A DNA stretch of 64,000 bases. Origin: Candidatus Poribacteria bacterium. Lineage in GTDB: Bacteria > Poribacteria > WGA-4E > WGA-3G. The notes under the pieces were generated by a model. It had not been told where the DNA came from, made no database searches, and saw nothing but the letters and a program-made list of their open reading frames with translations. The stretch lies in NCBI GenBank assembly GCA_963663765.2, contig CAXXUA010000004.1, positions 224,001 to 288,000 on the forward strand. The letters are read 5' to 3'. The stretch's first letter is position 1. Each line of letters starts with the position of its first letter. Below are positions 7,921 through 54,230 of this stretch, piece after piece. A program made the translations under genes and the position numbers.

Positions 7921-8322
7921 TTACTTGAGGGGTGTGCATAAGTAAATATAATTTTAAGCTTAAATCGTAGGTCGGGTGGAACGCAGTGTAACCCATAGGT
8001 GTCAACTTAAGAAAATATTGTTTGCATTTTCTCTTGTGGGAGGGGTTTTCAACCCCGATTTGAGCGGAAATGCACTAAAAAATCGGGGTTGAAAACCCCT
8101 CCCACAAGAGGTAAAATCCTTAAGTTGACACCTATGGGTGGAACGCAGTGTAACCCGACACAATCGTATCCAGTCTTACATGTCGGGTTTCGCAAACTCT
8201 ACACGACCTAAAAAATCTTGTCTTTTTGCACTAAGAGCGGTGTTCATCCACATATAGAAGTTTGTGACGTGTGTCACCATCTATGTTGATCCACAAGTTA
8301 TTTATGTACACCCCTCAAGTAA
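7921..8322. mobile_element. MITE-like element (TIR TTACTTGAGGGGTGT) hosting a nested family C element
   Basis: About 25-bp imperfect inverted ends. Confidence 0.65.
7995..8135. mobile_element. MITE family C (TIR ATAGGTGTCAACTTAAG) flanked by 21-bp direct repeat GGGTGGAACGCAGTGTAACCC
   Basis: Perfect 17-bp TIR; direct repeats at 7974-7994 and 8136-8156. Confidence 0.85.
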
Positions 8323-16130: not shown

Positions 16131-16169
16131 TTACTCTTAGGTGTCAATTTAGGGTTCTATTTCAAAGTT

Positions 16170-24306: not shown

Positions 24307-25610
24307 GGGTGTGTAAAGTTTTTGTAGAAACACTGATATTAAAAGAAGTCCATCAAGTTTCTATCAAAGCTTGCTTGACGTTAGGGAACTGTGGACATCG
24401 TAGGGCCGAGGTTTCCTCGCCTGTGTAAAATTTCTGATCGAGCGGTGAAACCCCGCCCCATAGGCGTCAATTTAAGGATTTTGACCTCTTGTGGGAGGGG
24501 TTTTCAACCCCGATTATAGTAAAAGATATAATTATTTGGACAATTTGAGCATCAAACTTTATGATGATTAATTTATTAATTCGGTAATAAATTTTTCTCA
24601 CATTGTAGGCGTGCTTTGTAAGCGCGCTGTTGAGACTTGATGTGCCAGCGCGCTTACAAAGCACGCCTACCATCGGGGCGCGCTTACAAAGCACGACTAC
24701 CTTGAGTGTGAATGAAAACGGCGCGCTTACAAAGCACGCCTACCTTGAGTGTGAATGAAAACGGCGCGCTTACAAAGCACGCCTGCAAGACGGATAAGAG
24801 AGGCGCGCTTACAAAGCACGCCTGCAAGACGGATAAGAGAGGCGCGCTTACAAAGCACGCCTACCATCGGTGCGCGCTTACAAAGCACGCCTACCATCGG
24901 TGAGCGCGCTCACAAAGCACGCCTACCTTGAGTGTGAATGAAAACGGCGCGCTTACAAAGCACGACTACCATCGGGGCGCGCTTACAAAGCACGCCTGAA
25001 AGAGGGATAAGAGGGGCGCGCTTACAAAGCACGACTACCTTGAGTGAGAATGAAAACGGCGCGCTTACAAAGCACGCCTGCAGGTGGGGGGCGCGCTTAC
25101 AAAGCACGCCTGCAGGTGGGGGGCGCGCTTACAAAGCACGCCTGCAAGAGGGATAAGAGGGGCGCGCTTACAAAGCACGCCTACCTTGAGTGAGAATGAA
25201 AACGGCGCGCTTACAAAGCACGCCTACCTTGAGTGTGAATGAAAACGGCGCGCTTACAAAGCACGCCTGCAAGACGGATAAGAGGGGCGCGCTTACAAAG
25301 CACCATTGGCGTCAATTTAAGAAAATATTGTTGTCATTTTTCTTGTGGGAGGGTTTTTCAACCTCGATTTGAGAGGAAAAGCGCATAAATTCGGGGTTGA
25401 AAACACCTCCCACAATACGTGAAAATCCTTAAATTGACGCTTATGGGGCGTGGCAACCACGCCCCTACGAATACACAAAATACACAACTTGAACGTCAAA
25501 ACTCATTAGGGCTTTGTGCCCCGCAATCTCTCATTTAATCAGTTGGGGCGGGCACAGAGTCCCGCCCTACAATGAAGAATGAGTAGTTTTTGCAAAAATT
25601 TTACACACCC
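24307..25610. mobile_element. Composite family B element enclosing family C ends and a mosaic repeat array
   Basis: B TIRs at both ends with imperfect 9-bp flanks GTCAACGAC/ATCAATGAC; C ends near 24459, 25304 and 25445. Confidence 0.75.
24605..25303 (+). repeat. REP doublet followed by a mosaic array: 18 copies of GCGCGCTTACAAAGCACGCCT(A/G)C with four recurring spacer types
   Basis: Counted by eye; spacer order ABBCCAABACBDDCBBC. Confidence 0.9.
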
Positions 25611-36114: not shown

Positions 36115-36333
36115 TTATAGTAGATTTTAGAATTGCTTGAACATTTTCAACAATCTCGGTTCCGTTTTCCCTCGCTTGCTGGGAAGATAAGTGAGTTGCA
36201 TAACGTACAGGTGCACAAATCATTATAGGTTCTACTATATCTTATCAAATGCTGTGGCAATTGGCAAGAAAAAAGGGGTGTGGGGAGTGTAAAGTTTTTG
36301 TTACTGTGCGTAGGGGCGGGGTCTCTGTGCCCC

Positions 36334-36473
36334 ATAAGCGTCAATTTAAGGATTTTGACCTCTTGTGGGAGGGGTTTGCAACCCCGAATTTATGCGCTTT
36401 TCCTCTCAAATCGGGGTTGAAAACCCCTCCCACAAGAGAAATGCTAACACTTTTTTCTTAAATTGACACCTAT
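36334..36473. mobile_element. MITE family C flanked by 21-bp direct repeat GGGGCGGGGTCTCTGTGCCCC
   Basis: TIRs; direct repeats at 36313-36333 and 36474-36494. Confidence 0.85.
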
Positions 36474-36579
36474 GGGGCGGGGTCTCTGTGCCCCGCCTTA
36501 CTGATTAAATGAGAAATTGCGAGGCATAGAGAACCATAGTTATCAATATAAGGAAATAATGTTATTATTAACCATACTC

Positions 36580-42469: not shown

Positions 42470-42819
42470 GGGTGTGTAAAGTTTTTGCACAAAGGTACAA
42501 ACTTTTGTTCTCTTTAGTCCCGTAGGGACGCAATGTTTATAGATAGGTGTAATCACCCTCTCTTGAGTTCCGTAGGAACGACATAGAAGAATAAACATAT
42601 CGTCCCTACGGGACTAAAGAACTGGTAAGGGCACTTGTTTTCTATAAACATATCGTCCCTACGGGACTGAAGAGTATGGTTGATATTAACAATATTTCCT
42701 TATATTGACACATATCGGTCTCTGTACCCGCAATCTCTCATTTAATCAGTTGCGGCGGGGCACAGAGATCCCGCTCTACAATGGAGAATGTGCAGTTTGT
42801 GCAAAAACTTTACACACCC
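42470..42819. mobile_element. MITE family B, flanks CAAACTTAT/CATACTTAT
   Basis: TIRs, near-perfect 9-bp TSD, internal REPs. Confidence 0.8.
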
Positions 42820-42961
42820 CATACTTATGTCTTACTCACTATGACTTCACACACAAAATTCATTTTTGTCAAATCTTTTTTTGTAAATTCTAACAGGGCT
42901 TATGCATTTCCCTTATCAAAGAGGCTATAAGAGGAAAAGGAAATGCGTAAATCCTCACAAT

Positions 42962-53284: not shown

Positions 53285-54230
53285 GGGTGTGTAAAGTTTT
53301 TGCACCATAGGCGTCAATTTAAGGCAGCTAATCCTCGCACACATCGTAGGGGCGAGGTCTCCTCGCACACATCGTAGGGGCGAGGTCTCCTCGCACACAT
53401 CGTAGGGGCGAGGTCTCCCTCGCACACATCGTAGGGGCGAGGTCTCCTCGCCCGTGTAAACGAACTTCCAATCGGGCGGGGAAACCCCGCCCCTACAATA
53501 AAGGTGCCATCTGAAGGAATTAGAACATCCAAGGTTTCACTTACACAAGAATAGAGAACTTCTTACTTAAACAGGACTTACGCAGTTTTCACGATCCAAT
53601 CAAGAATTAAGACGAAAACGATGTAATTTACAGCATTTTTTAGGGTTCCGGCGCGCTTACAAAGCACGCCTACCGTTGGGTGCGTAAGTCCTGTTAAATT
53701 GACGCCTATGGGTGTGTAAAGTTTTTGCACAAACATCCCACTCTCCATTGTAGGTCAGGTCTCTGTGCACCGCGGCAACTGATTAAATGAGAGATTGCGG
53801 ACACAGAGTCCTAATGAGTTTTGACGTTCAAGTTGTGTATTCGTAGGGGTGTGGTTTCCACACATGAATCTACGCAAACTCAAAAACCAAACGGGTTGGG
53901 GAACCCAACCCCTACGAATTCAACTACCAATTTTGATTGTCAAACTTCATTAGGTGTCAATATAAAGAAATATTGTTAATATTAACCATATTCTTCAGTC
54001 CTGTAGGGACGATATGTTTATAGAAATACATATCCCCACGTCTTTTTAGTCCCGACAAATGCCATACGCGCATTTGGCGTTGATTTGGTAGAGACGATAT
54101 GTTTATCCTTCTATGTCGTTCCTACGGAACTAAAGAGAGGGGATGTGATAACGTCTTCTATAAACATTGCGTCCCTACGGGACTAAAGAGAACAAAAGTT
54201 AGTACCTCTGTGCAAAAACTTTACACACCC
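53285..54230. mobile_element. Nested elements: family B containing family C (53307-53709, ~20-bp duplication of the B end) containing family A (53572-53693, TSD TTAAA)
   Basis: All TIRs and duplications readable in sequence. Confidence 0.85.
53333..53452 (+). repeat. Four tandem ~28-bp units CCTCGCACACATCGTAGGGGCGAGGTCT
   Basis: Read directly. Confidence 0.85.

Follow-up and report, generated by a model that had tools for sequence, protein, structure and literature searches.

A gene-less miniature element of Candidatus Poribacteria with 19-20-bp target duplications and the ends of an IS4-family insertion sequence close to IS231

A 64,000-nucleotide stretch of a Candidatus Poribacteria genome (contig CAXXUA010000004.1, positions 224,001 to 288,000; hereafter the window) carries copies of a short repeat, family C, which are flanked by long direct repeats of different sequence at each site. 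The analysis presented here indicates, with a probability that we put at roughly 0.85, that family C is a MITE (a miniature transposable element with inverted repeats), a gene-less derivative of about 143 bp of an IS4-family insertion sequence (IS) which is closest to IS231. Its size, copy number, inverted ends and target duplications, the absence of a gene, and the ends which it has in common with an IS of 1446-1470 bp in congeneric genomes all agree with this assignment. An earlier inspection of the letters alone (the sequence-only reading) had reported the long repeats at three copies in the window, and all three read as it claimed.

At the first of these copies a 21-base repeat, GGGTGGAACGCAGTGTAACCC, occupies 7974-7994 and 8136-8156 with a 141-bp core, ATAGG...CCTAT, between the two; at the second, GGGGCGGGGTCTCTGTGCCCC is repeated at 36313-36333 and 36474-36494, and at the third GGTGTGTAAAGTTTTTGCAC is found at 53286-53305 and 53711-53730. 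When the ends are placed one base further out, for reasons given below, the duplications at the three copies are 19, 19 and 20 bp long. The first copy is then a MITE of 143 bp (7994..8136) without an open reading frame (ORF) and with a long internal hairpin, ending in CATAGGTGTCAACTTAAGAAAATATT on the left and CATAGGTGTCAACTTAAGGATTTT on the right (reverse complement), and it lies between the left and right copies of the 19-bp target duplication GGTGGAACGCAGTGTAACC (7975..7993 and 8137..8155); the G at 7974 and the C at 8156 are the bases preferred at positions -1 and +1 of the target. Five further places in the genome are 100% identical to it over the 141-base query, or over all but the first base of that query. 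The second copy (142 bp, 36333..36474), one end of which is CATAAGCG, is flanked by the 19-bp duplication GGGCGGGGTCTCTGTGCCC at 36314..36332 and 36475..36493. The third is a longer relative of 405 bp (53306..53710) with the same ends and a different inner sequence containing short tandem repeats, and its 20-bp duplication, GGTGTGTAAAGTTTTTGCAC, at 53286..53305 and 53711..53730, serves a different MITE family as terminal repeat. In the window as a whole the end motif ATAGGYGTCAAYTTAAG has 11 matches with at most two mismatches, against 0.05 expected from shuffled sequence.

The same motif, at the same threshold, has 489 matches in the host genome (G000; 6.35 Mb in an assembly of 15 contigs that is 97.8% complete; congeneric relatives are labelled G001, G002, G003, G005, G007 and G008, and individual loci carry L-numbers). 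Consecutive plus and minus matches form 176 pairs, mostly 138-142 bp long, 147 of which span no more than 260 bp; the inverted ends of the MITE comprise at least 18 bases. If the element is bounded by ATAGG and CCTAT, as it was first drawn, exact flanking repeats of 21 or 22 bp are present at 43 of the 176 pairs, and repeats of 20-22 bp at 79 when up to two mismatches are allowed. However, the bases immediately outside these boundaries are C and G in 139 of the 176 pairs, T and A in 12 and C and A in 12, irrespective of the target, and wherever the flanking repeat stops short of ATAGG/CCTAT the odd base adjoins the element, and it is always a left-hand C with a right-hand G, or the T and A of the variant. 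Similarly, an IS copy in a relative (G001, L039), inserted in the target ACACGAATACGGCGACACC and flanked by A on both sides, still has C...G termini. Since the terminal C and G are present regardless of the target and persist in this A-flanked site, the element is CATAGG...CCTATG, one base longer at each end than first drawn. The shorter boundaries, which would imply a duplication of 21-22 bp, are supported by the 43 exact pairs, and about three quarters of the sites have G and C at -1 and +1 of the target, where both placements yield the same string; given the core-adjacent bases in targets without this G and C, both in family C and in the IS copies, and given that all relatives, as well as the IS231 signature in the part of the IS4-family survey drawn on here (PMC2266710), begin with CAT, we consider those boundaries very unlikely. 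The length of about 19-21 bp proposed by the sequence-only reading, which had noted its dependence on where the ends are drawn, was a fair estimate; with the corrected ends the duplication is 19 or 20 bp and not 21-22 bp.

With CATAGG...CCTATG as ends, an exact duplication of 19 bp is found at 38 pairs, of 20 bp at 31 and of 21 bp at one, and none at 106; allowing one mismatch the figures are 59, 42, one and 74, respectively. A tabulation of all genomic copies, as had been suggested beforehand, therefore gives duplications at 70 (exact) or 102 (at most one mismatch) of 176 pairs, all of 19-21 bp. When left and right flanks were randomly re-paired across copies, matches of at least 17 bp numbered 0.78 on average and three at most in 200 shuffles, compared with the 70 observed. 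Tandem arrays account for 25 of the 70 exact sites and were set aside; for 15 of the 45 that remain, an exact uninterrupted paralogue (10 bp, a single copy of the repeat, and 10 bp) exists elsewhere in the genome, and the flanking repeats are therefore duplications of one site. It could be argued instead that the repeats were already there, the element having inserted between tandem units resembling repetitive extragenic palindromic (REP) sequences, or that they were made by recombination, as the targets do belong to repeat families and the host has 20 tandem arrays, for most of which, their members pointing the same way, unequal crossing-over is another conceivable source. Such an origin is extremely improbable in view of the single-copy paralogues, of a length which stays constant across unrelated targets, and of unique, non-repeat targets which are duplicated in relatives.

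The longer element with the same terminal inverted repeats, for which the sequence-only reading had advised a search, was found in congeners and not in the host. In G005, a complete relative, the end motif has 43 + 43 matches, including 10 pairs with perfect ends exactly 1444 bp apart, and an identical open frame without stops, 462 codons in length (438 residues from the first ATG), is present in all 10. The protein matches Pfam DDE_Tnp_1 (E 2e-27) and NCBIfam transpos_IS4_1 (216.9 bits, against a cut-off of 115); it has the D, D and E residues and the Y-2-R-3-E-6-K motif of the IS4 family in the form YSIRWQVELMFKSFK, in a single ORF with no frameshift, as is characteristic of that family. Close homologues are named “IS4 family transposase [Candidatus Poribacteria bacterium]” in the protein database, and the RefSeq names for cultured relatives likewise say only “IS4 family transposase”. 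Relatives of the transposase, at 46-63% identity, occur in 14 of 18 congeners, a single genome having as many as 46 matches, and in none of 12 genomes outside the genus, while the MITE itself is present in 16 of the 18 congeneric genomes searched and in one of 12 genomes from other genera of the order. The related genomes which bear the IS are those of sponge-symbiont-type bacteria.

The two ends of the MITE are unlike each other, and they match the two unlike ends of the IS in G002 and G001, one over 26 of 26 bases and the other as AAGGATTTT or AAGGATTCT; the MITE is therefore a derivative of this IS lineage whose interior has been replaced, retaining only the two distinct ends (some 24-26 bp each) around an unrelated hairpin. 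The IS copies also make long duplications (scored with ends CAT...ATG and at most one mismatch): 18 bp at eight of the 10 copies in G005, the other two having unlike flanks; 19, 19, 19 and 20 bp in G001, with one copy showing none; 19 and 19 bp in G002, with two showing none; 19, 20 and 20 bp in G003, again with two showing none; 17 and 18 bp in G007; and 20 bp at the one copy in G008. Over 42 distinct poribacterial IS places the duplication is 17 bp at one, 18 bp at nine, 19 bp at 10 and 20 bp at eight, with none at 14. A second non-autonomous family is found in G005 (L035 and L036; C1:291194-291483, 4394244-4394533), being 292 bp long; it has these ends too and makes duplications of 18 bp, but inside them it is unlike the 143-bp family of the host.

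Every full-length element found with family C ends encodes an IS4-family DDE transposase and none carries cas1. The sequence-only reading had proposed that an unusual integrase, perhaps Cas1-like, acts in trans; a non-autonomous element moved in trans with long duplications agrees well with the results, whereas the enzyme of the congeneric elements is an ordinary single-ORF transposase of the IS4 family. Casposons, in which a Cas1 integrase makes duplications of 14-15 bp, resemble family C in their long duplications and terminal inverted repeats and differ in the type of enzyme. Were a Cas1-type integrase responsible, either casposase-like or that of the CRISPR adaptation complex of the host, the duplicated target would be comparable to a duplicated CRISPR repeat; the length of the duplications, the partly palindromic targets and the four cas1 genes of the host genome are compatible with this idea. 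The two cas1 loci inspected (the other two of the four genes being a duplicated pair) nevertheless adjoin CRISPR arrays with repeats of about 30 and 37 bases, and, with the DDE gene in the full-length elements, the involvement of Cas1 is so improbable as to be negligible. Of these CRISPR loci (L022 677-7464, G000 C4:126677-133464, and L023 11329-15856), one has a large array with a repeat length of 37 bases next to a 601-residue ORF containing Cas1; the other, with repeats of about 30 bases, appears to be split into separate blocks, as though insertions had interrupted it.

According to the IS4-family survey of De Palmenaer, Siguier and Mahillon (2008; PMC2266710), the family comprises seven subgroups whose duplications range over 7-13 bp, and “approximately one DNA helix turn” is a hallmark; for the IS231 subgroup the survey gives 10-12 bp, with ends of the form CAT-------AA--TAA---. 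The ends found here, CATAGGTGTCAACTTAAG, fit this signature at every fixed position (CAT at 1-3, AA at 11-12 and TAA at 15-17), and can be set beside the end CATGCCCATCAACTTAAG of a copy which adjoins an IS4-family gene on a Bacillus mycoides plasmid. IS231A is described as inserting into GGGNNNNNCCC, with an 11-bp duplication and the consensus GGGN5CCC (PMC2577343, citing Hallet et al., 1994). The lineage described here is thus alike to the IS231 subgroup in its single-ORF DDE transposase with YREK, in its CAT-type ends and in a symmetric target with GGG and CCC half-sites, but these are separated by a spacer of 13-16 bases instead of five, and the hosts are Poribacteria, Chloroflexota, Planctomycetota and others rather than Bacillota (the Bacillus cereus group and, for IS1151, Clostridium perfringens). 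Duplications of 19-20 bp for the MITE, 17-20 bp for the poribacterial IS and 19-21 bp in other phyla lie outside the 7-13 bp given for the family in that survey, and 17-21 bp contrasts with the 10-12 bp of the subgroup. In a plasmid collection the best named matches of the transposase were IS1151, at 28% identity, and IS4-family genes of Bacillus, at 25-28%; two plasmid genes from Chloroflexota were higher, at 32-34%, whereas many pairs within the IS231 subgroup exceed 50%. The element belongs to the IS4 family and resembles IS231 with its MIC231 cassettes in its way of working, but it is too remote for placement inside the IS231 subgroup. The terminal repeats therefore do match those of a described family, as the sequence-only reading had allowed they might, but the behaviour, judged by the 10-12 bp which that source gives (PMC2266710), is not one described for it. 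In the parts of the literature searched, outside ISfinder and the subgroup end alignments, no IS4-family elements with duplications of 17-21 bp were described.

There are parallels further afield. Tn5/IS50 and Tn10/IS10 belong to the same NCBIfam/Pfam family and have the same DDE/YREK residues, and a hairpin-mediated cut-and-paste chemistry may be presumed by analogy with them; they differ in their duplications, given as 9 bp in the text consulted (PMC2266710). A Tn5-like IS in the poribacterial host itself also makes exact 9-bp duplications, at three of its four copies, and the long stagger therefore belongs to the family C lineage and not to the host. The IS1202 family is comparable in having a clade-specific duplication length within one DDE family, with values far above 10 bp (27-28, 15-17 or 5-6 bp according to subgroup, as far as the preprint text used here goes; bioRxiv 10.1101/2022.12.17.520857), but it represents another enzyme lineage (IS481/IS3-related, rve-like) with TGT ends instead of CAT. 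IS30/IS1630 and IS1634/IS1549 are named as further families with long or variable duplications in the part of the survey consulted (PMC2266710). That a transposase of one of these families moves the element would account for duplications of 15-28 bp or of long and variable length, as these sources describe, and the host does have six IS1634-type ORFs. No IS1202-type gene was found in the host, however, where the only rve match over the cut-off is an IS3-type element, and family C ends are absent from all of the 14 multi-copy host IS families whose ends were read, so that we give this suggestion scarcely any credence.

Non-autonomous elements of this type have a precedent. MIC231 elements are mobile insertion cassettes which have IS231 ends without a transposase gene and are moved in trans by the cognate IS4-family enzyme, and in these respects family C is alike. 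It differs in being only about 143 bp long, without a cargo gene, present in more than 100 copies per genome, and often without a cognate IS in the same assembly.

Several observations weigh against the assignment of family C to this IS lineage and should be set out together. No transposase of the lineage is present in the host assembly, where tblastn gave nothing at E 1e-3 and the genome search 0 matches, and no match to transpos_IS4_1 exceeds the cut-off in the host genome; the mobilising gene for the host copies is thus inferred from relatives. At the same time eight of 131 well-aligned copies are at least 99% identical to the first window copy, which looks recent. The transposases of the IS231 group in Bacillus and Clostridium are only 25-28% identical. 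Among the 176 pairs, 74 lack a duplication at one mismatch or fewer; 22 of these show one at up to three mismatches and the rest have unlike flanks. No orthologous empty site, another check which had been proposed, was recovered in the 40 congeners searched with 2.5 kb around the first copy; the genes flanking that copy do have congeneric matches, with identities reaching 85-86%, yet these lie elsewhere, on other contigs or at other places.

Some of these points can be qualified. In metagenomes this IS often assembles as a lone collapsed contig, which binned genomes would lose, so that little weight attaches to its being missing from a metagenome-assembled genome. In this assembly the host copies are orphans of an IS lineage which is present in most congeners, the IS having been either lost recently or left outside the assembly. 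In the protein database many homologues of the transposase are on contigs of only 1.4-1.6 kb. As to the 74 pairs without a duplication, the left flank ends in CC or AC in 50 and the right flank starts with GG or GT in 52, and in 18 of those remaining beyond three mismatches the left flank equals the right flank of another copy. Most of the pairs beyond three mismatches thus have flanks which are unlike each other yet target-like, as recombination between copies, or neighbours in an array, would give.

A number of candidates for a partner within the host were considered and rejected. No end pairs up to 12 kb apart with flanking repeats of 20-23 bp correspond to an autonomous element, and the ends CATAGGYGTCAA are absent from the 14 multi-copy IS/ORF families mentioned above. 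A “long copy” of 1805 bp (G000 C4:1180655-1182459), with an exact duplication and a frame of 436 codons (416 residues from a GTG), is a MITE into which the Tn5-like IS has nested. The latter is 1656 bp long, encodes a transposase of 470 residues, has its own ends, CTTWCTTTTACCCATAAGT, and is present in four near-identical copies; it is probably the family B of the sequence-only reading. The nested copy is at L001 392-2047 (G000 C4:1180691-1182346) and the three others are on C5 and C6, two of the four lying within family C MITEs. A multi-copy ORF of 510 codons, 284 bp from one end motif, belongs to a separate ISKra4-related IS of 1460 bp which merely adjoins another repeat, and a host IS of 1537 bp with weak similarity to IS4_1 has different ends. 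A search of Rfam gave only sub-threshold look-alikes of microRNA precursors, which were caused by the MITE hairpin. The host genome is rich in mobile elements, with ORF copies numbering 27 of IS605-type TnpB, 13 ISAs1-like, 12 ISKra4-related, 12 IS630, 10 IS4/IS701-like and six IS1634, and several of its multi-copy ORFs (443, 507 and 330 residues) have no Pfam match.

The targets are G-rich at the start and C-rich at the end and lie mostly in other repeats, as the sequence-only reading had described, many of them within REP-like hairpins or the terminal repeats of other MITEs. Among 32 distinct targets with a 19-bp duplication, position -1 is G in 24 and positions 1-3 are G in 28, 25 and 27, respectively, while at the other side C stands at the final three positions in 25, 24 and 28 targets and at +1 in 27; the 20-bp duplications (24 distinct targets) have the motif G|GG...CC|C. 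The target logo can thus be written as G|GGG N13 CCC|C or G|GG N16 CC|C. The same reading went further in supposing that DNA structure is what is targeted. On such a view the transposase would attack where an extruded hairpin or cruciform has its base, and the palindrome, not the enzyme, would set the length of the duplication. The frequency of REP-like hairpin repeats among the targets, the near-perfect palindromes formed by some (e.g., GGGGTTGGGTAACCCAACCCC) and the mutual complementarity of the GGGG and CCCC ends all lend this some appeal. However, the duplication stays at 19-20 bp whatever the length of the stem, and clearly non-palindromic targets, such as ACACGAATACGGCGACACC and GGTATGATTATATAACGCAC, are used in relatives. 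In addition, a complementary pair at -1/+1 is absent in 22 of 57 distinct targets, and 51 of the 57 have no more than four pairs counted inward, a rough count which presumes a hairpin centred on the duplication and leaves off-centre hairpins uncounted; four pairs is the number supplied by the GGGG/CCCC motif itself. Targeting does not need a hairpin with its centre in the duplication, and recognition of structure is in our view improbable, the target being better described as a sequence motif that extends the GGGN5CCC of IS231A.

The lineage is not confined to the Poribacteria. An alignment of eight transposases, used to scan the genomes of 185,579 species, returned 78 loci; including those found earlier, 112 loci were examined and ends could be placed in 81, the following tallies being made after removal of duplicate places. 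In Chloroflexota (19 places) the duplication is 19 bp at two, 20 bp at five and 21 bp at two, with none at 10; in Planctomycetota (10 places) it is 20 bp at six, 21 bp at one and 13 bp at one, with none at two. Single places were found in one record of Acidobacteriota (21 bp), in a Clostridia-labelled metagenome-assembled genome (20 bp) and in one labelled Rhodoferax (none). The modal length varies with lineage, being 18 bp in G005, 19 bp in G001 and G002, and 20 bp in Planctomycetota. Targets of the type GGG...CCC recur in other phyla, for example GGGTGCTAAAACCAGTGCCC on a Ca. Chlorohelix plasmid. Four places in one record of Ca. Bandiella (L131-L134) have duplications of 12 bp (three) and 11 bp (one), with a transposase of 32% identity, the ends CATACGCGTCAAGTTAAG and one recurrent target, GTTGAAATGAAC; these copies represent a branch with short duplications which neighbours the clade with long ones.

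When 32 proteins were placed in a quick maximum-likelihood tree, the short-duplication ones (the Bacillus IS231-like sequences, IS1151 and Bandiella) formed one group (SH-aLRT 94), the long-duplication proteins being the rest. Two very long branches (L120 and L115) make the midpoint root meaningless, and therefore no direction of change in length was drawn from this tree. A 16-residue insertion present in IS231 and IS1151 was considered as the determinant of length and rejected; among 11 sequences, the Bandiella protein with its 12-bp duplications lacks it just as the long-duplication proteins do, and it therefore does not explain the duplication length. With some hesitation, we lean towards the view that a large IS231-related clade of the IS4 family, spanning Poribacteria, Chloroflexota and Planctomycetota with one Acidobacteriota and one Clostridia-labelled record, has lengthened its stagger, formerly a single helical turn of about 11 bp, to two turns (17-21 bp) whilst keeping the GGG/CCC half-sites, and that its own end bases complete the target motif, each insertion leaving two full targets which may seed arrays.

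As regards the chemistry and geometry of insertion and the origin of the arrays, we infer the following course of events. The DDE transposase encoded by the IS would move the MITE in trans, presumably by cut-and-paste as judged from IS231A and Tn5, and would select the symmetric target GGG(G)...(C)CCC. Each element end would be joined to one strand of the target, the two joints lying 19 or 20 bp (about two helical turns) from each other, and gap repair would then duplicate the intervening 19-20-bp stretch. It can be read directly from the sequence that, after insertion, the terminal C and G of the element occupy the preferred +1 position of the left target copy and the preferred -1 position of the right, and therefore each duplicated copy is again a full target. 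Re-insertion into such complete copies may help to explain the arrays of alternating element and target, of which the host has 20, each composed of two to four elements separated by one target copy. Most array members point the same way and have diverged to a similar degree, a pattern equally expected from unequal crossing-over; a few arrays with members which are unlike or in opposite orientations require independent insertions, as in C13:303665-303968, C6:20522-21191 and C3:39657-39993.

Other traces of the family remain in the window. A fourth MITE copy, at 25304..25445, has flanks which are target-like and unlike each other, without a duplication. At 24459..24477, on the plus strand, a longer member which shares the terminal repeat is represented by one end only, and an array of GCGCGCTTACAAAGCACGCC-like units follows; within the element which starts at this end, positions 24580-25300 form a long irregular array with units around GGCGCGCTTACAAAGCACGCC, and similar arrays fill many of the “long” members of 400-1200 bp across the genome. 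Two single degenerate ends, each with two mismatches, are at 16137..16153 on the plus strand and at 42699..42715 on the minus strand. The latter is within a nested composite of small repeats (42471-42820) bounded by GGGTGTGTAAAGTTTTTGCAC...GTGCAAAAACTTTACACACCC, the terminal repeat of another MITE family, into which family C has inserted repeatedly, 53286 being one instance.

A duplication of 17-21 bp made by an IS4-type enzyme is a trait which the published description of the family, in the parts consulted, does not include. The one-turn duplication of the IS4 family fits the solved complexes of Tn5 and Tn10, and 19-21 bp means either that the active sites are two turns apart or that the target is strongly deformed. 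The relatives with duplications of 11-12 bp (IS231 according to the literature and Bandiella in this study) permit a comparison, and the lengths found across the clade would offer a natural series from which to learn how a Tn5-type synaptic complex fixes its stagger. Annotation pipelines which expect duplications of no more than 15 bp will miss such elements or misplace their boundaries. These elements are abundant in genomes of Poribacteria, with more than 100 copies of the MITE in the present one, and their nesting in other repeats and their arrays complicate the assembly of these genomes.

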